Shown here piece by piece: positions 17,726 to 63,603 of a stretch of DNA of 64,000 bases; position 1 is the stretch's first letter, and every line of letters starts with the position of its first letter. The position numbers and the translations under genes are program-made. Source of the DNA: Coleofasciculus chthonoplastes F2-STO-03 (GTDB lineage: Bacteria > Cyanobacteriota > Cyanobacteriia > Cyanobacteriales > Coleofasciculaceae); NCBI GenBank assembly GCA_040222015.1, contig JAVJWO010000067.1:1-64000 (forward strand), read 5' to 3'. Below the pieces are notes generated by a model. The model did no database searches, was not told where the DNA came from, and saw nothing but the letters and a program-made list of their open reading frames with translations.

Positions 17726-18433
17726 TTAATCATCTATCGCTTCAACTTCACCCGCGATCGCACTTTGTGGTAAATCCGCTAAACCCATTGATTTTAATAG
17801 GGTTTCCCAGGTTGAAGGGAGGGTACGAAGCTGGGAGATATCCTGGGGCAGATCATACCAAATATTATGTTCAATTAATAGGTCAATCTGTTGGGATAAA
17901 GGCGCTTGCTGTATCTGCGTCTCTAAGTCTTGATTATCCAACCGTTTTACCCATCCCTGATGCCAAACGCGATCGCGCATGGATGATCCGGAGGATGTAC
18001 AATATAGCATGAGTTTCCAAGTGTAGCGTTGATTTGGGGCTAAGGGGGGCGCGGTTTTGGGTAAACTAATCTGAATTAAACCGGGGGTTTGGGGTAGAGA
18101 AAATTCCTGTCGGTAGATGGTATTTTGTTGTTCGTCTTCTATGGTAAATTTGCCGGAATGGAGGCTACTTGTTTGATAGGGAATGTAGAACCAAAGGGTA
18201 GGATATCCGTTGAGAGTGTAGCCGGAAAATTCGCTATTAGTCAGGGGTAATAAGGGGGTAAAGGGTTGATCTGTTTTCTCGCAGGAACCCCGAGTTCCAC
18301 CGGGATTTCGTTCTTCTGCGGGTTCACTGTCTGGGGGTTTGGGTGGATTATTGGTAGTCGGTGGGGTTTGATTGGTTGGGGTGGAGGTGATGAGAATTAA
18401 GGAAAGAATGAGTGGAAGGTTTGGGAAAGTCAT
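17726..18433 (-). CDS. DUF928 domain protein (exported)
   Basis: Hydrophobic N-terminus, PGGTRGSC, YPTLWFYIPY, YTWKL-LYC, GWVKR and IWYD motifs. Confidence 0.88.
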   Translation of the reverse strand: MTFPNLPLILSLILITSTPTNQTPPTTNNPPKPPDSEPAEERNPGGTRGSCEKTDQPFTPLLPLTNSEFSGYTLNGYPTLWFYIPYQTSSLHSGKFTIEDEQQNTIYRQEFSLPQTPGLIQISLPKTAPPLAPNQRYTWKLMLYCTSSGSSMRDRVWHQGWVKRLDNQDLETQIQQAPLSQQIDLLIEHNIWYDLPQDISQLRTLPSTWETLLKSMGLADLPQSAIAGEVEAIDD

Positions 18434-18539
18434 TGTTTTTTCTCCGGGTTTGGGGTTGGGTGGTTGGGTGTTTTTTTTAACGCAGAGGGGCGCAGAGGTT
18501 AACGCAGAGGGGCGCAGAGGGGTAGGCGTAATTGATGTT

Positions 18540-20879
18540 CTATCGATTTGGGTTGGGGTTGGGTTGATGTTTATGGGTTTGGTGTTTAACTGTGCATAGG
18601 TTGGTGATTAGATGGGCAAAAATAGAGGGAGTTAGGGGAAGGTAAAGATGAAGGGTGATAAAAATAATAAAGCTAACTCCTCCAATGCTAATTAGGATGA
18701 TTCCACTGGCGATTCCTCGATAGATTAAGCCGGAAATCCGCCAGTTAATTAGTCCGGCTGATAACGCCCATGTTCCAATCCAAAGACTCTCTATCCACCA
18801 GGGGGGAAATTGAAGTAGGGAACGTTTGTCTGTAACAGCGCTAATCAGTTGACTGATTTTATGGGCGTGAAGGTGTAAGCCGCGAATCTCTTGATTGTCT
18901 GGTGTTTTAAAGTAATCTTTGACGCTGGGATCGGTAACGCCAATTAATATGATTTTGTTTTGAATTAAGGCGGGATTCACTTGATGATTGAGTACCTGAG
19001 TTAGGGTGACAGTTGGGGCAATTTCCTCAGTGCGGCGATAGTTAAGCATGATTTGGTGTGATTTGACTTGGGAGGGGGTATAAAATCCAGGGTGACTATT
19101 CAGAATGTTGAAGCGAATTCCGCCAATTTGCCATTGTTTGGCGGTGGGAAAGTCAACAGAAAAGCCCTGATTCTGTAAATAACGTAGGGCGATTTGGGAA
19201 CTAAAAGCATAGTAGGCGGAACAGTTGGAAGGTTGAGGCGGATTCATGGCTAAAAGATGACGGCGAACAATGCTATCGGAATCGGTAATTACATCACTAA
19301 AGCCTAGACGCTTGTCGGGAATTTGCGGTGGTGGTGAGATACCTTCGGGATCATTCTGATTGGGATGGGTACAAATCGGAATCACGCGATCGCGCGTTTT
19401 GAGATACTCAATTAATTCCCCTTGACCTTTGCCTTCAGGTCGGTCACGATAGATATCTAAACCGATAAGTTGGGGCTGATATTGGTCTAAGGCTTGTAAT
19501 AATTGCCGCATTGTGCGATCATGCAGTGGATATTCGTTGCCTAAGTTGGCGATATCCTGCCGAGTAATCTGTACCAGCAACAACCGTTGATCCGGTTCCT
19601 CCGGCTGACGCGATCGCCCAAACCAATCAAACGTCTGAAATTCCCAAGATTGCCATACACCCAGCGATCGCATTCCCATCACCAATACCGTTACCCCCAC
19701 TGTCGCGGCGATTACCCGCCACCGAGGAAGGGATGACGAGGGAGAGGGAATCGGTTGAAGCTGTTGATTCACCCAATGGCGATCAAAAACAGAGGCATAA
19801 ATCCGATTCGCCACCTGCAACTGTCCCCCCCGCTTCACCACTAACCCCGATAACCGTAATTGCTGCTGCAAATGATTCTGATCAGCCGGAACTTTTTTCC
19901 CTTTTAGTATCCGGTGATACAGCATTAATAACGGTTGACTATCTTGATGCCCAGACAAGACGCGATCGCGAATCGTCCGCAGATGTTCAGGATTATCCTG
20001 AGACAGCCAATTATCGAGAATGTGCGATCGTACCACCTGATCCACAAAACCAGTAGGTAGGGTGTGGGGTGTAGGGTGTGGGGTGTAGGGAAGCATTTGT
20101 TCCCTTTGTTCTCCTACCGCCTGACACACCAACCGACATACTTTTTGCGTCAGAAACGGTTGTCCCCCTGTCCAATTTAATATAGCTTGAAGTACCGCAT
20201 CAGGATGACGAACCTTTCCCTGTAATCCCCTAACTAAAGGTTTCGCTTCCTCCGGCGTAAACCCCTTTAACTCAATCGCCAAACTATCAAAATTAAACGG
20301 CGTGCGTTGATTATCCGCAATCAAATCCGATGGCGTCGCCACTCCCAACAACGCAAAGGTTAAACGCTGGTATTTCGGCTGAGATGCCCGTTTATTATAA
20401 CAAGTGCGGATAAAGCCAAACAGATCATCTTTAAAGTCTAAATTCAGAATACTATCGATTTCATCAATAAAAATAGCAATCTTACCCGCAACCCTTCCCA
20501 AAACCTCCTCATCCACGAACTTACTGAACCGATCAAAGGGAGATAAATACTCATACCGATACCACCACTCCGCCTCATCCAGATCCAACGCAAACCCACT
20601 CACCAAATGACTCACCATTGTGCCATAAAACTCCTCCTGATTAATTTGAAAACTACAGATATCCCGCATTTCCATTTCCACACAAGCGAACCCCTGATCT
20701 TGCAAGCGTTTCATCGTCCGCACCAACAAACTCGACTTACCCATCTGACGAGAATTCAGCACATAACAAAACCGCATCCCCCTCAATCCCAGATAAAGTT
20801 CTTGATCCGCCGCCCGAACCACATAATTCGTCGCCTCCAGGGGTAAAGCGCCACCTACTTGATAGTCGTCATTTGTCAT
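18540..20879 (-). CDS. AAA-like (AAA_35-type) ATPase - TM - CHASE2 - 3TM membrane sensor
   Basis: YQVGGAL, YVVRAAD, LNSRQMGKSS (P-loop), IFIDEID, WTGGQPFLTQK; CHASE2 motifs IGLDIYRD and D-DSIVRR; three C-terminal TM helices. Confidence 0.9.
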   Translation of the reverse strand: MTNDDYQVGGALPLEATNYVVRAADQELYLGLRGMRFCYVLNSRQMGKSSLLVRTMKRLQDQGFACVEMEMRDICSFQINQEEFYGTMVSHLVSGFALDLDEAEWWYRYEYLSPFDRFSKFVDEEVLGRVAGKIAIFIDEIDSILNLDFKDDLFGFIRTCYNKRASQPKYQRLTFALLGVATPSDLIADNQRTPFNFDSLAIELKGFTPEEAKPLVRGLQGKVRHPDAVLQAILNWTGGQPFLTQKVCRLVCQAVGEQREQMLPYTPHPTPHTLPTGFVDQVVRSHILDNWLSQDNPEHLRTIRDRVLSGHQDSQPLLMLYHRILKGKKVPADQNHLQQQLRLSGLVVKRGGQLQVANRIYASVFDRHWVNQQLQPIPSPSSSLPRWRVIAATVGVTVLVMGMRSLGVWQSWEFQTFDWFGRSRQPEEPDQRLLLVQITRQDIANLGNEYPLHDRTMRQLLQALDQYQPQLIGLDIYRDRPEGKGQGELIEYLKTRDRVIPICTHPNQNDPEGISPPPQIPDKRLGFSDVITDSDSIVRRHLLAMNPPQPSNCSAYYAFSSQIALRYLQNQGFSVDFPTAKQWQIGGIRFNILNSHPGFYTPSQVKSHQIMLNYRRTEEIAPTVTLTQVLNHQVNPALIQNKIILIGVTDPSVKDYFKTPDNQEIRGLHLHAHKISQLISAVTDKRSLLQFPPWWIESLWIGTWALSAGLINWRISGLIYRGIASGIILISIGGVSFIIFITLHLYLPLTPSIFAHLITNLCTVKHQTHKHQPNPNPNR

Positions 20880-20950
20880 TTGTCATTTGTCATTTGTCAT
20901 TTGTCATTCGTCATTCGTCATTTGTCATTTGTCATTTGTCATTCGTCATC
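20868..20950. repeat. STRR-type heptamer tract, about 12 x GTCATT(T/C)
   Basis: Read directly; similar tracts at about 6628-6661, 17691-17720, 38286-38310 and 43506-43536. Confidence 0.9.
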
Positions 20951-21104: not shown

Positions 21105-22439
21105 CTAACCCCCCGATTCAATCCGACTCTCAAAATACTGACGAAATAACTCATAACGAGGACTAACGCCATCCCCTTCCCACCGTACCAACCCCAAATT
21201 CTCCAAAACATCCGCCACCTCTGGATTCAATCTTACCGGATGATTAACACCAACAACCTGATTAAACACCGCCACTAACTCCGGCAATTGATGTAACTTT
21301 TGTTCATACATCAGCAAATAATCCCGATAAAGTCCCCTAGGAGTCGCCGCCATTACCAACACCTCCTCCAATGTGACCAACTTTTGTCCAATTTGCTTAA
21401 TCGCCTCTTGCACTAAATAAGGCTGTCCCCCCACCATCGCCATTAACCGATTCACCTGATCTCCTTGCCAATCTAATCCATAATGTTGCGCCAACTCTTG
21501 CACCTGTTCCCGACTCAATTCCGGTAACGCGATCGGAAGTCCCGTATTAAATGGCGACTGATTAATATCAAGTTCGCGATAATCTTCCGTATACACTAAA
21601 ACCTGACGCAACTTGCCCCAAATTGGGCGCGTTTTCGCATCCTCATGTCGCGTTCGCAGCATCCCTAAAAACTCGCCAGCAACCTCTGGATACGGAAAAA
21701 TTCGATCCACTTCATCTAACCCCAAAACCAGACAACTGTCTCCGGGTAACAGATGCTTTTCAAAATACGTCTTACACTTATTCTTACTATTGCCAATACT
21801 CTTCTGCCAATGTTCAGCAACTGGATTATCTGACAATGATTCTTGGTTCAGACTCAGCGTCACACTGGTACAGAACCATTGCAGAAATCGATTCAAATCT
21901 TGAAAATCCGTCGCCGTTGCATCCCGCAGATTCAAACTCACTGCGCGATAACCCTGATCCGCCGCATAATTCAACACCCGTGACATCAACTCGGTTTTCC
22001 CCATCTTCCACGGCGCTTTAATCCGCAGCAAACATCCCGGCTTCAGGATTTCCCGGTAACAGGTAGGCAGAATCCCCGGTTCACTATAAATATCTTGGCA
22101 AAGAGGAGACGCGATCGCACGGGAATCTGTCTCTGGATTCCTCAGTTGTTCTCCATACTGTTGATATCGCACATACTCCCGCTTTAACCAGTCTCGCAAG
22201 CGCTTAAATTTCCCCTTTTTCTCCGTATTCAGCGCCGGACAAGAATGGGCAAATGTCGCATAAATTCGTCCCATTCGTCGTTGCAGCGTCGCCTCACTGA
22301 TATGTAAATTGTCAGCAATTTTGGCATCAAGTTCAGCCAAATTGCGTTCCGCAAAGCGGAGACAGAACACCCGTCTCTCATCGGCATCAAATATACCCTG
22401 ATAATCTGCAATTTGTTGTAAAAATGTATCCCACGACAT
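21105..22439 (-). CDS. N-terminal HTH + AAA-like (AAA_35-type) ATPase
   Basis: IADNLHISEATLQRRM helix-turn-helix-like segment; KAPWKMGKT, LGLDEVD, NQSPFN and MVGGQPYL motifs. Confidence 0.85.
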   Translation of the reverse strand: MSWDTFLQQIADYQGIFDADERRVFCLRFAERNLAELDAKIADNLHISEATLQRRMGRIYATFAHSCPALNTEKKGKFKRLRDWLKREYVRYQQYGEQLRNPETDSRAIASPLCQDIYSEPGILPTCYREILKPGCLLRIKAPWKMGKTELMSRVLNYAADQGYRAVSLNLRDATATDFQDLNRFLQWFCTSVTLSLNQESLSDNPVAEHWQKSIGNSKNKCKTYFEKHLLPGDSCLVLGLDEVDRIFPYPEVAGEFLGMLRTRHEDAKTRPIWGKLRQVLVYTEDYRELDINQSPFNTGLPIALPELSREQVQELAQHYGLDWQGDQVNRLMAMVGGQPYLVQEAIKQIGQKLVTLEEVLVMAATPRGLYRDYLLMYEQKLHQLPELVAVFNQVVGVNHPVRLNPEVADVLENLGLVRWEGDGVSPRYELFRQYFESRIESGG

Positions 22440-22650: not shown

Positions 22651-22690
22651 TGATACCTTCTGATAGCTTGTGATACCTTTTGATAGGTTT
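22651..22690 (+). promoter_or_regulatory. Candidate operator: four 10-bp-period direct repeats TGATA(C/G)(C/G)TTN
   Basis: TGATACCTTC TGATAGCTTG TGATACCTTT TGATAGGTTT in the divergent intergenic region; extra TGATAG at 22715. Confidence 0.6.
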
Positions 22691-22845
22691 AAAACAAACC
22701 CTCACAATTCTATCTGATAGCTAGCTGTGGGTTCAAATTCAAAATAAACCGATTTAATAGACTTATAAGCAAAATACATACATCTGATCGATCAGACCTA
22801 TTTTCCAGTTATCTCAACTCTCTCAGAATTTTCAGGAGTACGATT

Positions 22846-24555
22846 ATGCTGAAATTCAAACCCATTCTTTCTCTTACCGTAGTCGGACTATCTCTCAGCC
22901 TACTCAGTAGTGGTAAAGCCTCAGCCTTTAGCTTCAACTTTAGCCCAATAGTAGAAACTAGCGATTCATTCAGTTCCTTTACCAGCCTCGGATCAGGACT
23001 CGGTACTGCAGGCGGAAATAGCGGCTATAAGTTGTCCAATGACTCCAACTATCAAAACGGAAAAGGACTGGCAATTAACAATAATGGTCAAGTCGTCTTT
23101 TTTGCCGAACTCAAGTCAGGAGACCAAGGAATCTATGTTGGTACGGGTGTCAGCGCCCCAGAAATCATTGTTGACAACAAATCTTACTCTATATTTAGCA
23201 GTTTTGGTCAGGGACTATCCCTTAATAATGATGGCACAGTCGCTTTTTTTGCCGATGTCGATTCTGGAGAACAAGGCATCTTTACCAGCAGTGGTGTCAG
23301 TAACACTCAACAAATTGCCCATACAAACGGAACCTATAGTAGCTTTGCTCCTGGATTATCTCTCAACGATAATGGCACGGTTGCCTTTCTTGCCAATCTC
23401 GATAGTGGAGCGCAAGAAATATTTACCAGTGATGGTAATAAAACGATCCAAATTACCAACTGTATAGGTGCTGGCTCATCCGAGCAACAATGTCCTCTCT
23501 CCAGTGGAAATCTTGATCCTCTTGCACCTGACATTAATAATCAGGGAATGGTTAGCTTTGTGAGTCACTACGGTGTCTTTACAGGGGATGAGAATGGCAA
23601 CTATTTGATTGTTTCCGATCCCACTAACTTTTGGAATGGTTCATATCGGGAAGCCAACATAAATGACCAAGGAGAAGTCTCAGCCTTTGCTCATAATAAT
23701 GGTGCAGGTCAAGTCATTTTTAAGACGAATGGCATTAATGGTGAATTGATTGCTGGGAACAATTATGACGAGTCAGGAACACCCGATACATTCTATAACC
23801 TTGGCACCAGTTCTATCAATAATAAAGGACTCGTCGCTTTTATGGCAAATCAGGTCGTTGAAGGGTCTAGCGCCTTTAGCAACCAGGATAAAGGTATCTT
23901 TGTGGGCAGTAATGCAGTCGAGGATAAAGTTATTGGCATTGGCGATACCTTATTCGGTTCCACTGTAGTTGATTTAGCCATGGATCGGCAAAGCCTGAGT
24001 GATGATAATGAGATTGTCTTCTGGGCAAAAATGGAAGATGGGACAGAAGGAATTTACCGCGCTAATAACATCGCTGACTCCCAATTTAATCCTTTGCTTC
24101 CTGATAGTACCTTGGATGGAGTGTTCCGATTTATTGACGTGATTGGCGGAAAATGGTATGACCCACCTTCCGCCTATGGCTTCCGCTACGAAATGACCGG
24201 GGATTCTTTATTTACCTCAATTTTAAACTTCCCGGTTGGCTTTGAAAATCCCTTCACCGTATCTGTAGGAGATACAAATCTGGGTGAATTTCTACCTGGA
24301 GACAGTATCGATTTTGTCTCGCTTTTGGGTGATGGTGTTTCTGAATTTACGATTACTGGACTTGATGTTGATCCAACTAATCCCACAGCGTTCCCAATTA
24401 AACTTGACTTTGATACGGATACCGCGAGTTTCGATATGCACGCACTCATAGAGGAAGACAGTCAGAACGTGCCTGAACCCGTTTCTGTCGTCAGTTTGTT
24501 GACCTTTGGTTCAGGTGTTGTACTGTTGCGTAGACGGAAAGCACAGCAGGTGTAG
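22846..24555 (+). CDS. PEP-CTERM surface protein with NxxGxVAF tandem repeats
   Basis: AGGAG RBS, signal peptide (ASA-F), repeated (L/I)NNxGxVAF, C-terminal VPEPVS-TM-RRRK. Confidence 0.9.
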   Translation: MLKFKPILSLTVVGLSLSLLSSGKASAFSFNFSPIVETSDSFSSFTSLGSGLGTAGGNSGYKLSNDSNYQNGKGLAINNNGQVVFFAELKSGDQGIYVGTGVSAPEIIVDNKSYSIFSSFGQGLSLNNDGTVAFFADVDSGEQGIFTSSGVSNTQQIAHTNGTYSSFAPGLSLNDNGTVAFLANLDSGAQEIFTSDGNKTIQITNCIGAGSSEQQCPLSSGNLDPLAPDINNQGMVSFVSHYGVFTGDENGNYLIVSDPTNFWNGSYREANINDQGEVSAFAHNNGAGQVIFKTNGINGELIAGNNYDESGTPDTFYNLGTSSINNKGLVAFMANQVVEGSSAFSNQDKGIFVGSNAVEDKVIGIGDTLFGSTVVDLAMDRQSLSDDNEIVFWAKMEDGTEGIYRANNIADSQFNPLLPDSTLDGVFRFIDVIGGKWYDPPSAYGFRYEMTGDSLFTSILNFPVGFENPFTVSVGDTNLGEFLPGDSIDFVSLLGDGVSEFTITGLDVDPTNPTAFPIKLDFDTDTASFDMHALIEEDSQNVPEPVSVVSLLTFGSGVVLLRRRKAQQV

Positions 24556-24706: not shown

Positions 24707-24819
24707 AGCATACCCGTCAGTAACATTGATCTATACCTATTGAATCTTGGCTAGAGTTCTTTATGGGTAAAGGCACAAACAAATAACCAACAAAGTCTGA
24801 AAAGTTGAAGGAGAAAAAA

Positions 24820-25740
24820 ATGTTGAACTATACCGCAAAACTTTCTATTTCTGCTAAATTCATCCCTATCGCCACCGTATGTGGTTTGCTATTTGCCACA
24901 GGCGAATCCGCTCAAGCTGCTACGTTTGCTCTCAATGAAGATACTACTGTTGATACATTTACCGAATGTGTCAACGATGGTATTGCCCTCAAAGTTGGCA
25001 AAAATCCCGTTGATGAATCAGGATGGCAATATGCGATTGATTCATTTAATGATGGCGTGGATGGATTGCAAGTTGGTGGGGATGGTAATCCCTATGAAAT
25101 TTACAGTTTAGCTCTCAAGGAAACCAAAGATAGCCTTTTTGTGGCGATTAATGGCAATATGTCGTTAACAGGTGTTGATGGAACCAGTGCTGAGGATGGC
25201 AATATTGGGTGGGGTGATTTGTTCTTCAATTTTACCGATCAAGATTTCACCACGGCAAATAATCAAGGAGATTTATTCGGAGTCCGTTTTGCCGGAACCA
25301 ATGATTCCTTAGTCCCTAATCTTGGTCTTTATGGCAATGTCACCGCGATTAGTACCACAGATATTAATAGTGGATTTGAGAGTTTGGCAGAATACAACCA
25401 ACGAGTGAATGATTTTTGTCAAGGTGCTGGTTGTGGTCCGAGTCTGGGGGATTTACCTGCTGATACCTCCTATTTTGACCAATCTCAAAGTTTAAATACG
25501 ATTAGTTCCGGTGAATTTCTCACCAGTCTTATGTATCTGTCTGAGTCGGAATTACTCGCTGCTGGCTATGACTTGAATCGCTTTGATGGTGAACATACCA
25601 TCGCCTTCAAGTTCGATAAATCGGGGATTTGCGATCGCGGTTACTGTACGTCAGTCCCTGAACCCTCTGCTGGCTTGGGTTTAGCCGCCCTCGGCTTAAT
25701 GGTTGGCGTTAGTCAACTGCGTAAGCGTTACTCAGCTTGA
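24820..25740 (+). CDS. PEP-CTERM surface protein (GW-YAIDSFNDG type, possibly XDD3 family)
   Basis: AAGGAG RBS, signal peptide (AQA-A), C-terminal VPEPS-TM-RKR. Confidence 0.88.
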   Translation: MLNYTAKLSISAKFIPIATVCGLLFATGESAQAATFALNEDTTVDTFTECVNDGIALKVGKNPVDESGWQYAIDSFNDGVDGLQVGGDGNPYEIYSLALKETKDSLFVAINGNMSLTGVDGTSAEDGNIGWGDLFFNFTDQDFTTANNQGDLFGVRFAGTNDSLVPNLGLYGNVTAISTTDINSGFESLAEYNQRVNDFCQGAGCGPSLGDLPADTSYFDQSQSLNTISSGEFLTSLMYLSESELLAAGYDLNRFDGEHTIAFKFDKSGICDRGYCTSVPEPSAGLGLAALGLMVGVSQLRKRYSA

Positions 25741-30100: not shown

Positions 30101-30790
30101 ATTGATATAAGCGACAATCAGGGTCTATCTGTAAAGAAATATAACATAAATAGCCCAAGTTAAACTCTCTTCAGATAAAGAGCCATGATCTGGATGATAA
30201 CGAATTCTGACCATTCAAATCCGTGGCTACGTGATACTTGTGAGACTGTCAGGGAGGGGGTTGAAACGAGAGAAGTGACATCCTCCCACACCAAATCAAA
30301 GATTATGGTGATGTGCCTCTGTGGTCAACCGAGGCAACGTAAACGCCGCGTTGGTTGCCCACATAAAAAAGAATATCCCTAAACTGACCAAAACCTGCAT
30401 CAATTGTATGTTTGCCTAAAAACCCTTTCGCCATAGTTCGGAAATCAATTCACGACTCAATATAAAGTTACATCACCGCTTAATTACATTTTAGAATTGT
30501 TAATCTTTTTCGATTAAGCTTGACGAGTCGGTTGAATCTGATTAAAGTCGGTTATCATGCTATCAAGAGTATTTTAAGTTAGATTGCCTAGCCCAGTGAA
30601 TTGCCCTATACCAAACTCTTGTGGATGGTGTGACCGCTGAAGTTAAAGGTGAGATGGTTAGCCCAAAAAGAGTTAGTGCGATCGCACCTTGGCAAATGTG
30701 TTAGATCCTATATATATAGACCTGGCAACGAAGCCAGCATTATTAAACGTCCCTTTGAAACCCAACCTCTGCTGGGTTAACGAATCAGCC

Positions 30791-54500: not shown

Positions 54501-55927
54501 TTGATTGCACTTAAAGAGCCACTATCAATTTCCACTCCTCCAGAATTTCCCTTGGCTCCTAGTTGCACTGTACTAAAAACACCACTGGGGAATCCTTGAC
54601 TATCTTCTCCATTCAATAAAATGCTATCGGTAGCCCGAATTACTATCTTACCTGCATCTCCTTCTCCAAAGGTAGTGGCATCAATTCGAGCGCCATTGGT
54701 TACAGTTAAAGAGCCACTAAAAATTTCCACGCCCCCAGAATTCCCCTTGGCTCCCGGTGCCACTTGACTAAAAACACCACTAGAGAATCCTTGACTATCT
54801 TCTCCATCCAATAAGACGCTATCGGTTGCCCGAATTACTATCTTACCTGCATCTCCTTCTCCTAAAGTAGTTGCATCAATTTGAGCGCCATTCGTTACAG
54901 AAAGTGAGGAAGCTGTAATCCTGACATCTCCTCCTCTTCCTGTGGCTCCAGCTTCAACATTATTACTAATTACCCCTTCGGCTACAACCACGGTTCCAGT
55001 CGCATCAATAGTGATATCTCCAGCTTGAGCATCGACTGCACCCAAACCTGAAAATATTCCCGCCAAGAGTTGACTATTGCTAATAAACAAATCTCTAGGA
55101 TAAATAACAATATCACCTCCACCCGTCGCTGTTACATTAATAATGCTATCAAAAATTGCGATATCGGTTCGCGCCAAATCCGCTGGAAAATCCAACCCTA
55201 AACTCCCCTTATCAACCACTAATCCCAACTCTCCCGGTGCGCCGACTCCTGCTAATTCCACTCTGCCACCGAAGGCTTCTAAAGTACCACCATCAATTAA
55301 TAGTTCCCCCGTTGAAGTCGCATCTGGTGCTATATTTCCCCCCACAAGTAACAAGCTTTCTCCCGACGGGACAGATAGAGAACCTCTCACCTCAATTGAA
55401 CTCACTCCTTGAGCCGCCAATTGATTAAAGAAAAGCGCATCTGGGTTAACTGTGAGTAAAGGCGGAGCCTCGGGTTCAGTTGCACTAAAAACGCCTTGAT
55501 TGCCAAACCCAATGGCATTAGCTGTAGAGGCGACAAAGGAACCGCCAATATTTAACTGGGCATTCTCGCCAAAAATAATCCCATTGGGATTAATTAAAAA
55601 CAGATTTACCGTGCCATTTGCCCGAATTAAGCCATCAATATTCGAGAGAGTCGAACCCGTTACCCGACCCAAAATATTCTCAATACTCGAAGCATTATCA
55701 AAGAATGCGACTCCTCCTGTCGGCACAGAAAACTCTTCAAAACTGTGGAACAGATTTCCTCCTCGCACCGTTCCCTCTTTTATCAGGCAACTTGGACACC
55801 CGGTTACCTGAGAATTGACTGGAAGTGTATTATCCGCCTCAATTTGGCTTTTAGCTGGACTGATTGCTGCCAGAACGCTAAGGGCGATACTGCTGACACG
55901 GCAAAGGTAACGGATGATTGGTTTCAT
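51524..55927 (-). CDS. TpsA/filamentous haemagglutinin-like exoprotein without CHAT domain
   Basis: Signal peptide (AKS-Q), NLFHSF and NPNGIIFG, SDIIANA, TGRGGLP, EAQGW C-terminus; ATG at 55927 after AGGAG. Confidence 0.92.
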   Translation of the reverse strand: MKPIIRYLCRVSSIALSVLAAISPAKSQIEADNTLPVNSQVTGCPSCLIKEGTVRGGNLFHSFEEFSVPTGGVAFFDNASSIENILGRVTGSTLSNIDGLIRANGTVNLFLINPNGIIFGENAQLNIGGSFVASTANAIGFGNQGVFSATEPEAPPLLTVNPDALFFNQLAAQGVSSIEVRGSLSVPSGESLLLVGGNIAPDATSTGELLIDGGTLEAFGGRVELAGVGAPGELGLVVDKGSLGLDFPADLARTDIAIFDSIINVTATGGGDIVIYPRDLFISNSQLLAGIFSGLGAVDAQAGDITIDATGTVVVAEGVISNNVEAGATGRGGDVRITASSLSVTNGAQIDATTLGEGDAGKIVIRATDSVLLDGEDSQGFSSGVFSQVAPGAKGNSGGVEIFSGSLTVTNGARIDATTFGEGDAGKIVIRATDSILLNGEDSQGFPSGVFSTVQLGAKGNSGGVEIDSGSLSAINGAVIDATTFEEGDAGKIVILATDSILLDGKDSQGFPSGVFSAVASGANGNSGGVEIDSGSLSAINGAVIDATTFAEGDAGKIVIRATDSILLDGKDSQGFPSGVFSTVASGAKGNSGGVNIESGSLTVTNGAQINATSFGEGDAGKIVILATDSILLDGEDSQGFPSGVFSQVEQEAKGNSEGVEIFSGSLSATNGAQIDATTFAEGDAGKIVILATDSIFLDGEDSQGLAGGVFSTVQPGAKGNSEGVEIYSGSLSVTNGALISANTGGEGDAGKVVIRATDSIFLDGEDSQGLAGGVTSQVIPGAEGNSDGVEIFSASLSVTNGALISATTFGEGDAGKIVILATDSILLDGKNSQGLPSGVFSTVQLGAKGNSGGVNIESGSLSTTNGALISASTGGEGDAGKVVIRATDSIFLDGEDSQGFPSGVTSQVEQEAKGNSEGVEIFSSFLSVTNGAVIDATTLGEGDAGKVVIRVTDSILLDGEDSQGFPSGVFSGVTPGAKGNSGGVNIESASLSVTNGARISATTLGEGDAGKIVILATDSILLNGEDSQGNISGVFSTVQPEAKGNSRGVDIESGSLALTNGARIDATTLGEGNAGKIVIRATDSILLDGEDSQGFPSGVFSTVQPEAKGNSRGVEILSGSLTVTNDALISAETRSDTRAGDVSIDAKDFIQLSGDSGIRASATTGGPAGNLDIITQRLSVEDGAQITVSSPSGQAGNLTIGANSLELNQGQVTAETGTSGIEGGANIRLQNLNTLLMTDESLISATAFEDANGGNININSIFLIALPPEGVNGSDIIANAERGDGGRIIINGEGIFGIEERRAIPGNRTNDIDASSQFGGAPGEIQLNVPLDPARGLVELPGELVDVTRLVEQNLCQAAQGSSFIVTGRGGLPTPPHEPLNPEATWEDWRIESESESTANPTQDVETRHGASGEGKVHQQTPDNQPKRIIEAQGWYRDAKGTVILTAEPTRVTPHGNWLSSINCSE
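52535..54900 (-). repeat. 12 x 195-bp (65-aa) coding tandem repeats
   Basis: Anchor CCTTGACTAT recurs at exact 195-bp spacing from about 52641 to 54786. Confidence 0.93.
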
Positions 55928-56122
55928 TTTTCTCCTATCCTTTGAGTGGGAAGACTGGTTAATTAATATAGCAGTATAGTGTTTACACTTGAGATGTAAA
56001 ATCGAGGTCGAGCGTAAAAGGGAACAGGGAACAGGGAACAGGGAACAGTAGCAAGGCACTTCTAGCATTTTTCTCTCCCTTAAAAAGCTAGCATTGAGTT
56101 TTAACATTCATTTGAAAACGCT

Positions 56123-56470: not shown

Positions 56471-59182
56471 TTAGACAGTGATAAAGTCAGCTGATGTCAA
56501 TAAACCACTAGAATCCACATAAGCAATGATTTCAGATCCTAAACCAATTCGTGTTCCATTATTCATGGAAATACCACTGACTGTACCTGTGTATGAACTC
56601 AAACTGTAACTTGACAGTGAGCCATGAATCTGAAGCTTGTCGAACTCAGTTTCACCGGAGAAACTATATCGGTCGAAATTGTCAATGACAGCGTAATCGA
56701 GTCCAGCACCGTTGTAATAGATTGAGCTACTGGTGCCGAGAATAATCCGATCGCTAGCATCATAGTAACCTGGGTTGATGATATCGATTTCACCCGCACC
56801 GTCTAAGATACTGTTGGTTCCGCTCAATGTATCGGAACCGCTGCCCCCAACGAGGGTATCGTTACCCCCTGCACCAGTGAGCGTATCGTTTCCAGTACCA
56901 CCATCAAGACTATCGTTACCAAAATTGCTAGAGGAATCATCACCTGTCAGGCGATCATTTCCACTACCACCGAGTAGAATATCGTTACCCGCTTCTCCTT
57001 GGAGGGTATCATTACCTGAACCGCCATCCAAGCGATCGCCAATCGTATCAACAGCACCCAGAGTATCGGAGTCAAGGTAATCATTGCCGCTACCGCCAAT
57101 TAGAGTATCCGCACCCCCTTGACCCAATAATCGGTCATTACCTGTACTACCATCTAAGGAATCGCTCCCAGCACCGCCATCGAGGGTGTCATTCCCCGCA
57201 TAGCCATAGAGCGTATCGTTTCCAGTACCCCCAGAAAGACTATCGTTGCCAAAATTGATTGAGGAATCATCTCCTGTCAGGCGATCATTTCCACTACCAC
57301 CGAGTAAAGTATCGTTACCAGCTTCTCCTCGGAGGGTATCATTACCATCACCGCCATCCAAGCGATCGCCAATCGTATCAACAGCACCCAGAGTATCGGA
57401 GTCAAGGTAATCATTGCCGCTACCACCAATTAAGGTATCCGCACCCCCTTGACCATAAAGATAATTGTTAGAACTATTACCACTGATACTGTTGTTGAGG
57501 CTGTTGCCTCGTCCGGAAGAAGCCGTGCCAGTCAGTGTCAGATTTTCCAGGTTATTTCCCAGGGTGTAACTGATCGAGGAATAGACGCGATCGCTGCCTT
57601 GGTTGGCGTATTCGACGACTACATCACCTGTAGAATCAACCACGAAGCGGTCATTACCCGTACCGCCATACATGCGATCGCTTCCTGTACCACCCGATAG
57701 GTAGTCGTTGCCTGAGCTACCCGATAGGTAATCATTGCCAGCATAGCCGTAGAGGTAATTGTTAGAACTATTACCACTGATACTGTTGTTTAGGCTGTTG
57801 CCTCGTCCGGAGGAAGCCGTGCCAGTCAGTGTCAGATTTTCCAGGTTATTTCCCAGGGTGTAACTGATCGAGGAATAGACGCGATCGCTGCCTTGGTTGG
57901 CGTATTCTGTAACTGTATCACCTGTAGAATCAACTACGAAACTGTCATTACCCGTACCGCCATACATGCGATCGCTGCCTGTGCCACCATTGAGGTAATC
58001 ATTTCCGGAACTGCCACTGAGGGTGTCGTTGCCTGTGCCGCCATACATGCGATCGCTACCTGTGCCACCATTGAGGTAGTCGTTACCTGAGCTACCCGAT
58101 AGGTAATCATTGCCAGCATAGCCGTAGAGGTAATCATTACCGCCATTGCCGTTCAGGACGTTCCTAGCGCTGTTACCCTTGATCGTGTCGTTCCCTGAAC
58201 CGCCGTTGGCGTTTTCGATTAAGGAACGGGCATCGTCTTTATACTGAAGTGCATTAAACACATGACCACGGGCATCTTTGCCGCTGCCAAGACGGGCACG
58301 TTGGGAGTTCCCGCCAACATCAAGGTCAGACCAACCCCCTGGCGCCAGGTTGATTGATAGATTAGTGGTGTAGTTGGAGAAGTTGTAAGTATCAATCCCG
58401 TTACCATCCCAGATTGTGCGGAAGATACGGTTAGCACCTGGTGTACCTTGCCCAACACCATTAACAGACATCTCCCCAGTGTCTTTATCAAAGGTGTAAG
58501 TCGTGTTGCCGGAATTGTAGCCAAACGATGCACCATACATCTGCTGAATTGCGGCGATGTCGTACATCATCAGCGACTGGGCATACCCCCATGTCTCATT
58601 TGTATATCCGCCAGAGCCTGGATGCCCTACATAAGATTTGTAGGTCATAATCGAGAACTCCATTGAGTCGCGATTGGAATTCATAGAGACATTGCGAACA
58701 CCGCCAGTCTCGTGCCCATGTTTCAAGCCCAGTGCATGACCAAGCTCATGTCCAAAGGTGTGATAAGACCAGTTACCGATTTTCGGGCTGGTTGTTTTGG
58801 TTCTGTTAAACCAGGCGTCCCCGGCTTGGACAGTGTTTCTAGGGTAATAAGCGTATGCGGTATTAGGGTCGTTTGACATTGCCATGCGGATGGTTGCATC
58901 GCGATCGCTAGTACCCGTCCGTTCAGAGAAAGTAAGATTGGAAATATTGGCAAATGCCCCTAGCCATTCTCGCGCCACAGCTCGTTGAGTTGCATTTAAC
59001 GATTGGAAGCTATCAGCATGATCCGCACGGTCGGGATAACCAGACTCATAGTCATTGATGCTGTTAGTGAAGCTAAAGCTCACTGAGTTAGATTTCCACT
59101 TAGATCCACCTAGTAAGCCATCAATGTTATTGTCGTCGGTTGCTGTTACAGTTGTTGATGGTGTGGGAACTCCAAAGCTCAT
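56471..59182 (-). CDS. Serralysin-like (M10B) zinc metalloprotease with RTX Ca-binding repeats
   Basis: HELGHALGLKH, SIMTY Met-turn, DIAAIQQMYG, IENA-GGSGND, many GGxGxD nonapeptides; AAGGAG RBS; no signal peptide. Confidence 0.93.
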   Translation of the reverse strand: MSFGVPTPSTTVTATDDNNIDGLLGGSKWKSNSVSFSFTNSINDYESGYPDRADHADSFQSLNATQRAVAREWLGAFANISNLTFSERTGTSDRDATIRMAMSNDPNTAYAYYPRNTVQAGDAWFNRTKTTSPKIGNWSYHTFGHELGHALGLKHGHETGGVRNVSMNSNRDSMEFSIMTYKSYVGHPGSGGYTNETWGYAQSLMMYDIAAIQQMYGASFGYNSGNTTYTFDKDTGEMSVNGVGQGTPGANRIFRTIWDGNGIDTYNFSNYTTNLSINLAPGGWSDLDVGGNSQRARLGSGKDARGHVFNALQYKDDARSLIENANGGSGNDTIKGNSARNVLNGNGGNDYLYGYAGNDYLSGSSGNDYLNGGTGSDRMYGGTGNDTLSGSSGNDYLNGGTGSDRMYGGTGNDSFVVDSTGDTVTEYANQGSDRVYSSISYTLGNNLENLTLTGTASSGRGNSLNNSISGNSSNNYLYGYAGNDYLSGSSGNDYLSGGTGSDRMYGGTGNDRFVVDSTGDVVVEYANQGSDRVYSSISYTLGNNLENLTLTGTASSGRGNSLNNSISGNSSNNYLYGQGGADTLIGGSGNDYLDSDTLGAVDTIGDRLDGGDGNDTLRGEAGNDTLLGGSGNDRLTGDDSSINFGNDSLSGGTGNDTLYGYAGNDTLDGGAGSDSLDGSTGNDRLLGQGGADTLIGGSGNDYLDSDTLGAVDTIGDRLDGGSGNDTLQGEAGNDILLGGSGNDRLTGDDSSSNFGNDSLDGGTGNDTLTGAGGNDTLVGGSGSDTLSGTNSILDGAGEIDIINPGYYDASDRIILGTSSSIYYNGAGLDYAVIDNFDRYSFSGETEFDKLQIHGSLSSYSLSSYTGTVSGISMNNGTRIGLGSEIIAYVDSSGLLTSADFITV

Positions 59183-59367
59183 AGTTGTTTCTCCTTATAA
59201 CATTAAAGTTCATGGATTGCTGTGTCTGTTGTAAAAATTGAATATTTCCTAGCTATTGTGATGGAGGTTTCAGGTTTTCTTCCTCCTCCACTTCACTTAC
59301 AATTGCCATTGTGCTGGTAAAATCAACGGCAGAGTTGAGGAAAAATAGGTAGTATGAAAATTAAGTG

Positions 59368-59407
59368 AATTCAGGATAATTCAGGATAATTCAGGATAAT
59401 TCAGGTT
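59368..59407. promoter_or_regulatory. Candidate operator: 10-bp-period array AATTCAGGAT x3 + AATTCAGGTT
   Basis: Read directly; about 185 bp upstream of the protease start. Confidence 0.55.
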
Positions 59408-59532
59408 TCAGTCATATATATAGGGTTTACCGGTGTGGTGAGGTACATGATCAGGGCTGGGGATGAGGGCGCAATGATGGTGTCCCTACAGGGTGTACCT
59501 CACGCAATTGAGAACTGCGATAAACCTCCCAC

Positions 59533-59572
59533 GGCTAGGTTGTGATAGCTTTTGATATCTTCTGATAGTAAT
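59533..59572 (+). promoter_or_regulatory. Candidate operator: 10-bp-period TGATA-type array
   Basis: GGCTAGGTTG TGATAGCTTT TGATATCTTC TGATAGTAAT; extra TGATACCT at 59587; same motif as 22651-22690. Confidence 0.55.
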
Positions 59573-59722
59573 AACCCGACTAAAGTTGATACCTAACGGG
59601 GGGTTCTGCACCAAGAATTCCCTTTTTAATAGACATAGATGAGACACGAAAAGGTAGGGGCACCATCCTTGCGCCCCCACAGCAGAAACCCTATAACCCC
59701 TAACCGTTAAGGATGCTCGACC

Positions 59723-61117
59723 ATGAAATTTAACCGAGAACAGGCAGTACAAATAGCCAAGCAAGTTGTATCCGATCAAACCCACCGCAGCTTAACCGAT
59801 GTTGAAGTAATCGTTCTCAAAGGATCTTGGGATAGACAAGAGTACGATCAAATTGCGGCACAAAATCAATATTCGACCAGTTATATCAGTCAAGATGTCG
59901 CCCCAAAACTGTGGAAAACCTTAACGGATGCCTTGGGTGAGAGAGTCAAAAAAAGTAACTTAAAACAAGTTTTAGAGGCATATTGGCAACAGAAAATGGC
60001 GGCTACTGACTCAACCAATCCCCTCAGCCAAAATCATAATTATCCTTTGCCTTCAGCCTCCCCAAAACAGCAAAGTACAGAGTTATGCAAAACCACTCCC
60101 GAAGCACCAGCCGCCTTGACACCCGATCGCTATGTGGAGCGCTCTCCCCTAGAAACCATCTGCGCGAAAACCCTATCCCAACCGGGGGCGCTAATACGGA
60201 TTAAAGCACCTAGCCTCATGGGTAAAACCTTTCTCGTGACTCGAGTATTGGCTCAACTCGCCACTCAAGGCTACCGCATCGCCAGTGTAAGCTTGAAGCT
60301 GGCAGATAGCAGCAAACATTTCACCAATTTGGATAAATTCTTACGCTGGTTGTGTATTAATTTGACTCACGAACTCCATTTACCCAATGAGTTAGACGAG
60401 TATTGGGATGAAGACTATATGGGGTCAAAAGTGAGCTGCACCACCTACTTTGAAGACTATCTCTTAGCCCAAGCCAATACCCCCTTAGTTCTCTGTTTCG
60501 ATGATGTGGATTTGCTCTTCCCCCATCCCGAAGTTTATGAAGACTTTTTTGGACTCCTGCGTTCCTGGTATGAAAAAACCAGGAGTCGCCAGCGCTGGAA
60601 AAAATTACGATTAATTATTGTCCATTCAACGGATGTGTATATCCGGTTAAATATTAATCAATCTCCCTTTAATGTCGGCTTACCCATAGAACTATCCGAT
60701 TTTACCCCAGAACAGGTACAAACCTTTGCCCAGTATCATGAATTAGAACCAAATATGAGTCTAATCCAACCCCTAATGCAGATGGTGGGGGGACATCCCT
60801 ATCTCTTGGAGCAAGCCTTTGCTCACCTGAAAAATCATCCAGAAATTACCCTAGAGCAGCTCCTAGCAGAAGCCCCCACGGAATCCGGAATCTACAAGAG
60901 CCATTTGCGGGAAAACTGGTTACATCTGCGATCGCATCCTGAACTCGCTACAGCATTTAAACAGGTGGTAACCGCAACCATCCCGATCCAACTGGAACCT
61001 ATATCAGCCTATCAACTCCAAAGCCTGGGATTGATCAAACTATCGGGGAATCAAATAGAGCCGCATTGTAACTTATATCGTTTGTATTTTCGTCAGTATT
61101 TAGGAGACATTGAATGA
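59723..61117 (+). CDS. N-terminal HTH-like domain + AAA-like (AAA_35-type) ATPase
   Basis: LTDVEVIVLKGSW-YDQIA-Y-SYI-LWK-L-ALGERVKK N-terminal domain; YVER, KAPSLMGKT, CFDDVD, NQSPFNVG and MVGGHPYL. Confidence 0.88.
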   Translation: MKFNREQAVQIAKQVVSDQTHRSLTDVEVIVLKGSWDRQEYDQIAAQNQYSTSYISQDVAPKLWKTLTDALGERVKKSNLKQVLEAYWQQKMAATDSTNPLSQNHNYPLPSASPKQQSTELCKTTPEAPAALTPDRYVERSPLETICAKTLSQPGALIRIKAPSLMGKTFLVTRVLAQLATQGYRIASVSLKLADSSKHFTNLDKFLRWLCINLTHELHLPNELDEYWDEDYMGSKVSCTTYFEDYLLAQANTPLVLCFDDVDLLFPHPEVYEDFFGLLRSWYEKTRSRQRWKKLRLIIVHSTDVYIRLNINQSPFNVGLPIELSDFTPEQVQTFAQYHELEPNMSLIQPLMQMVGGHPYLLEQAFAHLKNHPEITLEQLLAEAPTESGIYKSHLRENWLHLRSHPELATAFKQVVTATIPIQLEPISAYQLQSLGLIKLSGNQIEPHCNLYRLYFRQYLGDIE

Positions 61118-63603
61118 ATACTGAACTTCAGCCAACGTACAGGTATCAAATTGGTGGCAGTTTACCCCCAGATTCTTCAACCTACGTGGTGCGACAGGCA
61201 GATTCAGACTTATTTAACGCCTTATTAGCAGGGGAATATTGCTATGTTCTCAATTCCCGACAAATGGGTAAATCCTCCCTGCGAATTCGTACCATGGACA
61301 AACTACAAGCCCAAGGAATTGTCTGTGCCGAGATTGAACTCACTGGAATTGGGAGCCAACAGATTACGGCACAACAATGGTATGGTGGAATTATTCAAGA
61401 ACTGATCAGTGGTTTTGACTTGCCGATCAATCGACGCCATTGGTTACGCGATCGCGAGGATCTTTCCCCAGTACAACGGTTGAGTGAATTTATCGAAACT
61501 CTGTTGCAGCAAATCCCCAAAAACATCGTCATTTTTATCGATGAAATTGATAGTATTCTCAGCTTAAACTTCCTCACCGATGAATTTTTTGCCCTAATCC
61601 GCAACTGCTATAATCAGCGAGCCTCTAAACCTGACTATAAACGCCTCACTTTTGCTCTATTAGGCGTCGCCACGCCATCGGATTTAATCCAAGATAAAAA
61701 TGCTACTCCTTTTAACATTGGTCGCGCCATCGAACTCAGAGGCTTCCAATTCCATGAAAGTGGAGCTTTAGTCGCCGGATTGGTTGGTCGAGCTAATCAT
61801 CCTCAAGCCCTGTTAAAAGAAATATTATATTGGACAGGAGGACAACCATTTCTGACCCAGAAACTCTGTTGGCTTATCGCTCAGTCTGGTTTCGTTCAAA
61901 GTCAGGAAGTTGACACTATTCCCCCTGGTGAAGAATCCAAATGGGTAAAACAGTTTGTACAAAAGCAGATTGTCGAACATTGGGAAGCCCATGATGATCC
62001 AGAGCATCTAAAAACTATTCGCGATCGGATTTTGCGGAATGCTCGTAACAGTGAAAAATTGCTATTATTATGCCAACAAATTCTCCAACATGGAAAAATT
62101 GCCGCCATAAATTCTGATGAACAGATGGAATTACGGCTATCGGGAATAGTCACCAAACAAGAGAGTTATTTACGAATTTATAATCCTATCTACGAATCTG
62201 TCTTTAATTTAAAGTGGGTGAGTGCTAAACTAATCGCATTGAACTCATCCCCAATCCGAGTAGACAAGGCAACCGACAAAAAGGCAAAAATTCCCGAAGA
62301 TATCAAGGAGATTGAGCCGGAATCATGGAACAATCCTCCAGAAGCGATTCCAATTTCCCCAATTCCTGCATCGGAGAGCCAAGTATTACCTGTAGACTCG
62401 CGGCAAGAACCGTGGTGGTGGGTTGGGTTAAGGGTACTAATCGCCAGTGCGATCGCAACAGGTTTGGTTTTAGGAGTGCGATCGCGCGGTGGGTTGGAGT
62501 CTTGGGAACTTCAAGTCTTTGATCACCTGATGCGGTTACAACCCCAGGAAGAACCCGATGAACGACTTTTAATTGTGGAGATTACCGAAAAAGACGTTCA
62601 GGCTCAACCCGCAACCGAACGAGTGGGTGCGTCTCTATCGGATCGCGCCTTTGCTCAACTCCTGGCTAAATTAGAGTCGTATCAACCCCAAACCATTGGC
62701 TTAGACATTTATCGCGATCGCCCTGTAGAGGACAACTATCCAGAGTTAGCCCAAGCCATGGAAACGAGCGATCGCTTGTTTACCATTTGCCATTACGGTA
62801 ATCCTGGGGTGATACCGCCACCGGAAGTGTTAGGCGAACGACAAGGTTTTAATAATGTAATCCTGGATGCTGATGATATTCTGCGTCGTCATCTTCTCGC
62901 GGTTTCTGACGCCTCACCCTGTCAAAATCAATACGCTTTTAGTACACAGGTTGCTAGTCATTACCTAGCTACCCAAGGAATTGAGCCGCACCTGAATTCC
63001 GACGGGTATCTTCAGCTTGGCTCAACCGTATTTAAAACCTTAGATACAAACCCTGGCGGCTATTCGACGATCAAGTCCAGTGGTCACCAAATTTTACTCA
63101 ATTACCGCGCCACGAATCAGATTGCTGAGAAAATTACGCTTACAGACGTTCTCAATGGTCAACTCAATCCTGAACAGGTAAAAAATCGTATTGTTCTAAT
63201 TGGTACCACGGCTCCCAGTTTTAACGATCATCGTTGGTTCACTCCCTACAGTAAAGGAAAAGGAACCGTTCGAACCATGACGGGGATTGAAATTCAAGCC
63301 CAGATGGTCAGTCAAATTCTCAGTGCTGTTTTAGATCAGCGATCGCTAATCTGGTGGTGGTCAGAACCCATTGAGATCCTCTGGATTTGCGGCTGGTCTT
63401 TAATTGGTGGACTACTTGCCCAAAATTCTCGTTCACTGCAAGGTTTTCTGGTTCAAGGCGGAGTCGCGATCGCTATTTTATATGGAAGCGGCTGGGTGCT
63501 TTTCCTGCAAGGGGGTTGGATACCCCTAGTTCCCGCCGCTTTAGCCTTGGTTATGACTGGAGGTATGCTGATTGTTTTATCTCGATTTAAGATTAATCCG
63601 TAG
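61114..63603 (+). CDS. AAA-like (AAA_35-type) ATPase - TM - CHASE2 - 3TM membrane sensor
   Basis: YQIGGSL, LNSRQMGKSS, IFIDEID, WTGGQPFLTQK; CHASE2 IGLDIYRD and DADDILRR; three C-terminal TMs; ATGA overlap with upstream gene. Confidence 0.9.
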   Translation: MNTELQPTYRYQIGGSLPPDSSTYVVRQADSDLFNALLAGEYCYVLNSRQMGKSSLRIRTMDKLQAQGIVCAEIELTGIGSQQITAQQWYGGIIQELISGFDLPINRRHWLRDREDLSPVQRLSEFIETLLQQIPKNIVIFIDEIDSILSLNFLTDEFFALIRNCYNQRASKPDYKRLTFALLGVATPSDLIQDKNATPFNIGRAIELRGFQFHESGALVAGLVGRANHPQALLKEILYWTGGQPFLTQKLCWLIAQSGFVQSQEVDTIPPGEESKWVKQFVQKQIVEHWEAHDDPEHLKTIRDRILRNARNSEKLLLLCQQILQHGKIAAINSDEQMELRLSGIVTKQESYLRIYNPIYESVFNLKWVSAKLIALNSSPIRVDKATDKKAKIPEDIKEIEPESWNNPPEAIPISPIPASESQVLPVDSRQEPWWWVGLRVLIASAIATGLVLGVRSRGGLESWELQVFDHLMRLQPQEEPDERLLIVEITEKDVQAQPATERVGASLSDRAFAQLLAKLESYQPQTIGLDIYRDRPVEDNYPELAQAMETSDRLFTICHYGNPGVIPPPEVLGERQGFNNVILDADDILRRHLLAVSDASPCQNQYAFSTQVASHYLATQGIEPHLNSDGYLQLGSTVFKTLDTNPGGYSTIKSSGHQILLNYRATNQIAEKITLTDVLNGQLNPEQVKNRIVLIGTTAPSFNDHRWFTPYSKGKGTVRTMTGIEIQAQMVSQILSAVLDQRSLIWWWSEPIEILWICGWSLIGGLLAQNSRSLQGFLVQGGVAIAILYGSGWVLFLQGGWIPLVPAALALVMTGGMLIVLSRFKINP

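Follow-up and report, generated by a model that had tools for sequence, protein, structure and literature searches.

Two ATPase gene pairs without a kinase

How might a receptor bearing the CHASE2 sensor domain act on gene expression when its polypeptide carries no enzymatic domain after its last transmembrane (TM) helix? The question is raised by two gene pairs in the window, by which we mean the whole 64,000 nt stretch analysed (positions 1-64,000, forward strand, of contig JAVJWO010000067.1 from Coleofasciculus chthonoplastes F2-STO-03). Each pair joins a soluble ATPase gene with a variable N-terminal head, here termed A, to an ATPase gene with a C-terminal sensor, termed B. The explanation that we hold to be reasonably probable is a kinase-free pair with B as the sensor, A as the transcription activator and a common ATPase interface as the link between them.

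The first pair lies on the minus strand. A1 (21105-22439, 444 aa) has a predicted helix-turn-helix (HTH) head over residues ~1-95, the recognition helix of which reads SEATLQRR, and a STAND-type ATPase that matches AAA_35 with 355 bits; B1 (18540-20879, 779 aa) scores 86 bits for AAA_35 and 209 bits for CHASE2, and runs from a catalytic-type ATPase through a TM segment and CHASE2 to a C-terminal TM region. On the plus strand, A2 (59723-61117, 464 aa, AAA_35 462 bits) joins a predicted HTH with the helix STSYISQDVAPKLW to a STAND-type ATPase with the Walker B acids DD and Arg280, and B2 (61114-63603, 829 aa, AAA_35 90 bits, CHASE2 237 bits) has the order catalytic-type ATPase, TM, CHASE2 and TM region. 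The A2 and B2 genes overlap by ATGA, and 225 nt separate A1 from B1; part of this gap is filled by a run of 7-bp GACAAAT-type tandem repeats, within which B1 starts (about 20870-20950). The coordinates, domains and ATGA overlap of the unit are as an initial annotation, made from the sequence alone, had placed them. A recent duplication of the two loci is ruled out by the identities of A1 with A2 (35%) and of B1 with B2 (45%), and the pairs are therefore old, distant paralogues. The closest named homologues are from Coleofasciculus.

By hydropathy, CHASE2 is flanked by TM segments on both sides in B1 and B2, as in other CHASE2 transmembrane receptors. At the threshold used one segment precedes the domain in each protein and one (B1) or two (B2) follow it, whereas the initial annotation had counted three. 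A Pfam scan of both proteins found no kinase, cyclase or phosphatase domain after the last helix, in agreement with that annotation, and in all four proteins it found no histidine kinase, receiver or phosphotransfer domain, which sets the pairs apart from two-component systems. In B2 only a low-complexity linker occupies the place where some homologues have a cyclase.

Predicted docking of the ATPase domains

Both A and B have a P-loop with Walker A and an acidic Walker B, then a helical GxP domain and a winged helix, as STAND nucleoside triphosphatases (NTPases) do. Across 126 B sequences the Walker A GKS is invariant (100%) and the Walker B residues DE are present in 99% and 100%, with Arg163 as the conserved arginine of B itself. 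Across 128 A sequences GK is kept in 98%, the first Walker B acid as D in 96% and Arg280 in 98%, with a variable second acid (E 50%, D 22%, N 16%). The GxP motif is G357-x-P359 in A (99%) and G243-Q-P245 in B (98-99%). A model of A2, with a predicted local distance difference test score (pLDDT) of 88, comprises the HTH, a disordered linker, the P-loop domain, the helical domain and the winged helix, ending in helices and a beta-hairpin. Its fold matches those of NRC4, CED-4, Apaf-1, MalT (8bob) and archaeal ATPases at E values of about 1e-8 to 1e-6, and in the fold search also Avs3/4 and ORC/Cdc6; over the full domain it is matched best by two archaeal ATPases, SSO1545 and PAB2304.

The assembly modelled was the A2-B2 heterodimer, which is predicted to dock head-to-tail with an ipSAE of 0.74, against 0.00 for the best of three controls. 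Among reference pairs, 116 of 157 solved complexes attain the mark used, as do 2 of 215 mismatches; these counts are approximate with the alignments used here. Separate runs have at least 84% of their contacts in common, the partners have pLDDT values of at least 83, and residues 270-289 of A, including Arg280, are placed on the Walker A/B face of B. The prediction supports binding between the A2 and B2 ATPases. Natural single-chain B+A fusions, found in seven loci and confirmed by Pfam in one, likewise fit the ATPase-ATPase contact that had been proposed.

These fusions, of 720-760 aa, were seen at L029 (9193-11448), L030-L032, L034, L057 and L058; that in L029 adjoins a YcaO/ThiF gene, and several others are near A2-type genes. 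A whole-protein search of 301 genomes of the phylum, with three candidates scored per genome, returned mostly B+A fusions. P0099 and P0109, considered as A+B fusions among the B2 homologues, proved to be B+B-CHASE2 proteins.

Phased repeats and candidate promoters in the window

Each pair is divergent from a gene for a secreted protein, as initially annotated. At the first locus this is a PEP-CTERM surface protein with NxxGxxAF repeats and a VPEP tail (22846-24555, plus strand), the predicted target of A1; at the second it is an M10 serralysin-like metalloprotease with RTX repeats (56471-59182, minus strand), the predicted target of A2. Operators, which had previously been no more than supposed, have candidates in both intergenic regions as arrays of repeats with a 10-bp period. 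Upstream of the PEP-CTERM gene, an A1-type array of four phased repeats TGATA(C/G)(C/G)TT-N (22651-22690, plus strand) is followed by a predicted activator-dependent promoter (22715-22745, plus strand), consisting of a proximal TGATA, a TGGGTT element and a -10-like CAAAAT 25 bp after the start of the site. Ahead of the RTX protease, an A2-type array of four 10-bp phased repeats with the sequence CCTGAATTAT on the minus strand (59361-59405) precedes a second predicted activator-dependent promoter (59308-59350, minus strand), in which a proximal TCAACTCT is separated by 17 bp from a -10-like CACAAT. With a matrix trained on other genomes this promoter reaches 24.3 bits, making it the second-best intergenic site of the genome, and it misses the strict A2-type pattern described below. 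Four of the five GATA-N6 triple arrays in the genome are at its three CHASE2-pair loci, and an unbiased scan for a period of 10 recovered the same four among 19 intergenic arrays.

An A1-type cassette also faces A2-B2 (59543-59617, plus strand), composed of three TGATA repeats, a proximal TGATA, GGGGTT and CAAGAA, and its score of 21.2 bits is the fourth best in the genome. Congeners have almost identical cassettes ahead of three other genes, which suggests that the element is a functional promoter; G439 has it and G387 lacks it, hence it may represent strain-level rewiring or a remnant. It is a possible link from the first locus to the second, in the form of a cascade.

Between the fragments of a broken A/B pair elsewhere in this genome (C130:116300-119833) the best A2-type promoter of the genome (32.9 bits) is intact and faces a short remnant open reading frame. 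An A1-type array with no ATPase gene nearby stands ahead of a gene for 77-100 aa in this genome (C15:1097) and in a congener (L394); the gene is a candidate in-trans target. Four metatranscriptomes had even depth over intergenic DNA and contigs of over 50 kb; they were therefore DNA-like and uninformative on expression or start sites, and an uncovered M10 domain in their coverage was discarded as evidence, since a coverage hole proves nothing.

The repeat follows the recognition helix

A survey of A genes, from which those with less than 300 nt upstream or with duplicate N-termini were dropped, associates each repeat with one type of head. All 12 genes with an A1-type helix have a TATCA tandem (five genera, eight genes from one of these), including two in which the A1-type head is on a different NTPase type. 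With an A2-type helix, an ATTCAG tandem is present at 10 of 21 genes that are first in their operon and at 0 of 4 operon-internal ones. Neither tandem was found at any of 83 A genes with another HTH or none, and background rates are 0.44% (TATCA) and 0.16% (ATTCAG). Hence the repeat follows the recognition helix of the HTH. More distant heads have phased arrays of their own, as judged by eye (L125-L139; L039, L086, L104 and L112), with AAGTAGAA-like, GTATAT-like, AAGTCT-like and GTAAG-like repeats, which suggests a wider helix-to-repeat code.

Read towards the divergent gene, the A2-type promoter is CCTGAATTTAAC-TCAACTAT-N17-CATACT. The -10-like box was present at the expected offset in two loci before the box had been inspected there, and the proximal site starts 25 bp ahead of it in all 10 training sites and in later ones. 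As at promoters of the MalT/AfsR type, helically phased direct repeats reach the -35 region of what would be a weak promoter. Among held-out loci, a matrix built from the 10 training sites gave 22 bits or more at 10 of the 14 that have an A2-type head and at 2 of the 103 that lack one. A1-type promoters combine the array with a proximal TGATA and GGGTT, and their -10 is less regular.

The strict form of the A2-type pattern was sought in 301 genomes, 21 of which were classed as having an A2-type head (E 1e-31 or lower for the best match to the A2 head). Fourteen of these 21 have it, as do 3 of the 280 others; read backwards, it occurs in 3 of 301. All 24 sites in the genomes with the head are intergenic with a co-oriented gene downstream, whilst the other three are in coding sequence. 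Several sites are far from any ATPase gene, and the A2-type targets therefore form a regulon. Among 22 downstream genes scanned, 10 are of surface, export or peptide-maturation types (two RTX, three CARDB, and one each of FG-GAP, META, C39 exporter, PatG-type protease and peptidoglycan-binding) and one is DUF6851; the predicted targets lean to RTX, surface and peptide-export genes, cytoplasmic enzymes included. In congeners the array and promoter are kept, and the cargo slot holds an S8-RTX protease or an unrelated protein instead of the RTX M10 protease; in G133, where A is 8 kb away, the array has remained beside B and the RTX gene. Two peptide precursors of Nif11-like type, as judged by eye, also have A2-type arrays 100-220 bp ahead of them (L347 and L358, both in G333); G333 is not among the genomes with an A2-type head at E 1e-20.

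Distribution of the pair

AAA_35 matches fall into two families, A with a full and B with a partial match, and this genome has about 16 A-type and about 12 B-type genes. It holds a third complete HTH-A/B-CHASE2/DUF928 locus, with a divergent PEP-CTERM gene (contig C46), and further adjacent A-B pairs on C7, where B has WD40, and on C64; its fourth B-CHASE2 gene (C142) has no adjacent A. Stand-alone HTH-A genes on C96, C49 and C159 were noted beside PEP-CTERM genes, with no adjacent B, and two A-type genes with an in-frame TAG (C27:33920-34915 and C12:2855-3841) are pseudogenes or assembly errors.

Beyond this genome the pairing proposed initially is conserved. Of 104 distinct B genes having room upstream, 59 have A immediately before them, counted in the genome set together with the best 80 of 614 loci from a B-CHASE2 alignment search, a ranking that may favour loci holding A. 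In the same survey A is adjacent at 15 of 20 B-CHASE2 loci; at three, genes for a lanthipeptide synthetase or C39 exporter separate B from an A2-type gene 8-10 kb upstream, and of the remaining two, one has no A in view and one ends short. A sample picked by CHASE2 similarity alone (the best 40 of more than 200 beyond the window's own), contained 12 B-CHASE2 loci from six genera, with A adjacent in 10 and within about 8 kb in the other two. Between the identity matrices of A and B there is a correlation (Spearman 0.59, 59 pairs), which shared ancestry accounts for and which we therefore do not count as co-evolution.

Two features suggested by the window are not general. The pair is not specific to CHASE2: B proteins end in WD40, CHASE2, GAF and others, and A heads include HTH, TIR, kinase, trypsin-like, caspase-like and CHAT-like types, several judged by eye. 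Nor is a divergent secreted gene constant, since a family-confirmed one faces A in just 4 of 15 adjacent CHASE2 pairs; targets appear to be marked by the promoter motif, not by adjacency.

Genes around the two loci

DUF928, CHAT and TpsA genes are present at each locus where the initial annotation had put them. At the first, the DUF928 gene (17726-18433, minus strand) directly follows B1, and its predicted product is a likely periplasmic partner of CHASE2; convergent on it is a single gene for a fusion of TpsA (TPS domain) with CHAT (12099-17108, plus strand). At the second locus CHAT and TpsA are encoded separately, 3.6-13 kb from A2, as a TPR-CHAT protease with an N-terminal hydrophobic segment and His/Cys motifs (46557-49289, plus strand) and a TpsA-like exoprotein downstream of the RTX protease (51524-56107, minus strand); a Pfam scan places DUF928 at 49264-50106 (minus strand). 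Two TpsA-CHAT fusions with His/Cys motifs (12099-17108 and 30689-36073) flank the first locus; the window showed no TpsB transporter gene. A second PEP-CTERM gene (24805-25740), of the XDD3 family to which the cargo of the C46 pair also belongs, follows the first cargo gene, and a DUF2887 gene (50184-51326) stands between DUF928 and TpsA at the second locus, as one does ahead of a CHASE2 gene at L209.

These neighbours had been linked to the ATPase pair. Instead, they accompany CHASE2 receptors whatever the cytoplasmic domain, and are therefore companions of the CHASE2 side: within 5 kb of the 22 CHASE2 genes of this genome, DUF928 is found at 11, TPS at 5 and CHAT at 8. In the CHASE2-only sample, 28 of the 40 loci have a different N-terminus, which was CHAT in all five tested, with DUF1822, which we take to be PatU3, ahead in seven of eight tested and DUF928 in the stretch at 24 of the 28. 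Many of the CHAT-CHASE2 receptors (L184-L214) are preceded by a DUF1822 gene and often by a gene for 210-480 aa without a Pfam family, and followed by DUF928. Hence the receptors have at least two kinds of cytoplasmic output, of which the ATPase pair is one, and by their gene content the CHAT-CHASE2/DUF1822 loci would be a HetF/PatU3/HetZ-like output on the same receptor module. In the HetF-PatU3-HetZ pathway, as far as the accessible part of PMC9457339 describes it, a membrane protein with a cytoplasmic output controls a regulator; output there and in CHAT-CHASE2 is a caspase-like protease and here an ATPase pair, with sister loci of the order DUF1822-CHAT-CHASE2-DUF928. The neighbourhood of CHASE2 and DUF928 is noted once, in Nostoc, in the available portion of PMC5587647.

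A model and its alternatives

We propose that a periplasmic cue, probably involving DUF928 and the CHAT/TpsA product, would change the nucleotide state of B. The membrane CHASE2 receptor ATPase would bind the soluble HTH-ATPase head-to-tail, with the conserved arginine of A predicted to be lent to the nucleotide site of B, and B so altered would nucleate an A-containing oligomer. Several A heads would then occupy sites one helical turn apart, overlapping the -35 region, and the last of these, starting 25 bp ahead of a weak -10 box, would recruit RNA polymerase. The target of A1 would be the PEP-CTERM gene, with the A2-B2 operon as a possible second, and that of A2 the RTX protease. The basis of this scheme is the observed gene order, domains, conserved motifs, repeats and covariation of the latter with the HTH helix.

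A number of observations count against it. As docking controls we used unrelated proteins rather than A-A, B-B or non-cognate combinations, and the score may owe something to head-to-tail AAA+ packing as such or to likeness to solved AAA+ rings. B is bound to the membrane, which makes the route of an oligomer to DNA a difficulty, and about 11 of the 16 A genes of the genome have no adjacent B. The repeat motifs were defined after the sequences had been viewed; the held-out set contains near-duplicates, and related genomes are not independent; about 10 of the 14 strict-positive genomes had already been seen before that test, and 7 of the 21 genomes with an A2-type head have no strict site. Five of the 22 target genes are of cytoplasmic type (two caspase-like, an amidohydrolase, an aminotransferase and a DnaJ-TPR protein) and six have no family. 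Across genomes the A1-type array has thinner support: the head is present in three of five matching genomes, two genomes with the head miss the strict A1-type pattern, and in metagenomes only 3 of at least 124 stretches had the array near these ATPases. The other stretches of that search, in which flanks were available for 80 loci, were tandem repeats in unrelated DNA; finding genes by this array was abandoned, the array alone being unspecific. An added cyclase domain is carried by 14 of the 120 best B2 homologues (P0006-P0018, P0120), between ATPase and TM in the one examined at full length; a purely non-enzymatic receptor is therefore the common form, not the sole one. As to the heads, the initial claim of a DNA-binding domain draws support from the fold of the A1 head, which resembles NarL, GerE, DegU and Spo0A (root-mean-square deviation 2.1-3.9 A over 63-95 residues) at Z 6.5-7.8, a range that the tool calls common (Z <8). 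PF26355 (HTH_VMAP-M9) is precomputed on 119 of 120 A2 homologues, and an Atlas value of 0.89 to PF26355 clusters is taken as a lead only. However, profile searches of PDB sequences gave no significant HTH, a Pfam scan of A1 and A2 with a local copy gave no HTH match, Foldseek gave no head match at E <0.001, and hhalign did not align the two head types to each other.

Predicted docking, fusions and operators fit the hetero-oligomer that the initial annotation had proposed, whilst B may either activate A or hold it back. B might sequester or inactivate A at the membrane until a signal frees it to self-oligomerise like MalT, and the tethering of B, its catalytic look beside an A with GKT and a variable Walker B, the many stand-alone A genes, and the same arrays at genes with A1-type heads on other NTPase types (L119, L120) are all in keeping with this; we nevertheless think it unlikely, as B+A fusions suit a shared oligomer better than a reversible trap and the modelled interface is of the productive head-to-tail type. 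The promoter motif might instead be that of a different factor, for instance an alternative sigma, with the ATPase genes as co-inherited passengers; this would account for the sigma-like geometry (site, 17 bp, CAYAMT) and for the few matches beside loci with other A heads (L110 and C130 of this genome). It appears improbable given that two different motifs each track a different recognition helix, that more distant heads have yet other arrays, and that the pattern is nearly absent in the 280 genomes without the head.

In paired sensor/helper NLRs (nucleotide-binding leucine-rich-repeat receptors) one STAND protein has a variable C-terminal sensor and the other a variable N-terminal effector. 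Like those of plants, NAIP-NLRC4 and the bacterial Avs, the pairs here are two related STAND proteins with sensor and effector split, and they might be a system of defence or cell death in which HTH and repeats are merely autoregulatory. Other members do have TIR, kinase, trypsin-like, caspase-like or CHAT-like heads and WD40 sensors, and the arrays are also close to the start of A itself; moreover, the Npun2340/2341 family is listed, in the accessible part of Kaur 2021 (PMC8195603), among NTPases of counter-invader systems. The output of paired NLRs and Avs is cell death, whereas here an HTH meets promoter sites and the sensor faces the periplasm; A1, B1, A2 and B2 match no PADLOC family, apart from the HTH heads, a Pfam scan found no effector domain, toxic or other, in these pairs, and the -10 geometry is directed away from A and recurs at unlinked genes. 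We consequently give a defensive role little chance.

Relation to known systems and significance

By analogy, the kinase-free pair likely works like MalT of E. coli or AfsR of Streptomyces, which also combine a STAND-type ATPase with a DNA-binding domain, but split into a membrane sensor and an activator. In those regulators sensor, ATPase and HTH are in one soluble chain; here they are distributed over two ATPases, A ending after the winged helix and B carrying the sensor, a transmembrane CHASE2. AfsR, according to the available portion of PMC10936776, binds direct repeats overlapping a poor -35 beside a suboptimal -10, and ATP binding stimulates it. With two-component systems that have CHASE2 sensors the pair shares a membrane sensor and a cognate DNA-binding partner encoded adjacently; those rely on phosphotransfer between kinase and receiver, domains that are absent here.

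AAA_35 is presumably the Npun2340/2341 family, the name of which derives from two adjacent locus tags. The pair probably belongs to that family, a cyanobacterial STAND family of the MNS clade, as defined by Leipe et al. 2004; the part of PMC8195603 available contains the name, that of PMC7159879 makes no mention of it, and 'Npun2341' was not mentioned in the literature searched. AAA_35 is listed as an accessory domain of sigma-like proteins in the accessible portion of PMC11119718. In the openly accessible literature we found nothing that describes the CHASE2-coupled pair or its operators, although the Kaur supplements may list these architectures, and the ATPase pair is a widespread variant of STAND signalling that is apparently undescribed.

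A broader reading can be offered tentatively, as somewhat less probable than the core mechanism: that filamentous cyanobacteria use a general kinase-free paired-STAND language, with exchangeable B sensors (CHASE2, WD40, GAF) and A outputs, in which an HTH-repeat code switches on RTX, surface, lanthipeptide and cyanobactin-like regulons, and in which the modules of the window form a cascade from one envelope sensor to a second and on to a secreted protease. With the promoter motif defined, the claim of a kinase-free pair is directly testable. If true, it would provide a function for thousands of cyanobacterial proteins labelled only 'AAA-like' or 'CHASE2 domain-containing' (relatives numbered 7308 and 6029 among 8000 candidates each), and would point to a possible activator of several clusters for peptide natural products and export. 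It would also offer an orthogonal sensor-activator-promoter set for cyanobacteria, and would mean that NLR-like ATPase pairs serve transmembrane gene control, not immunity.

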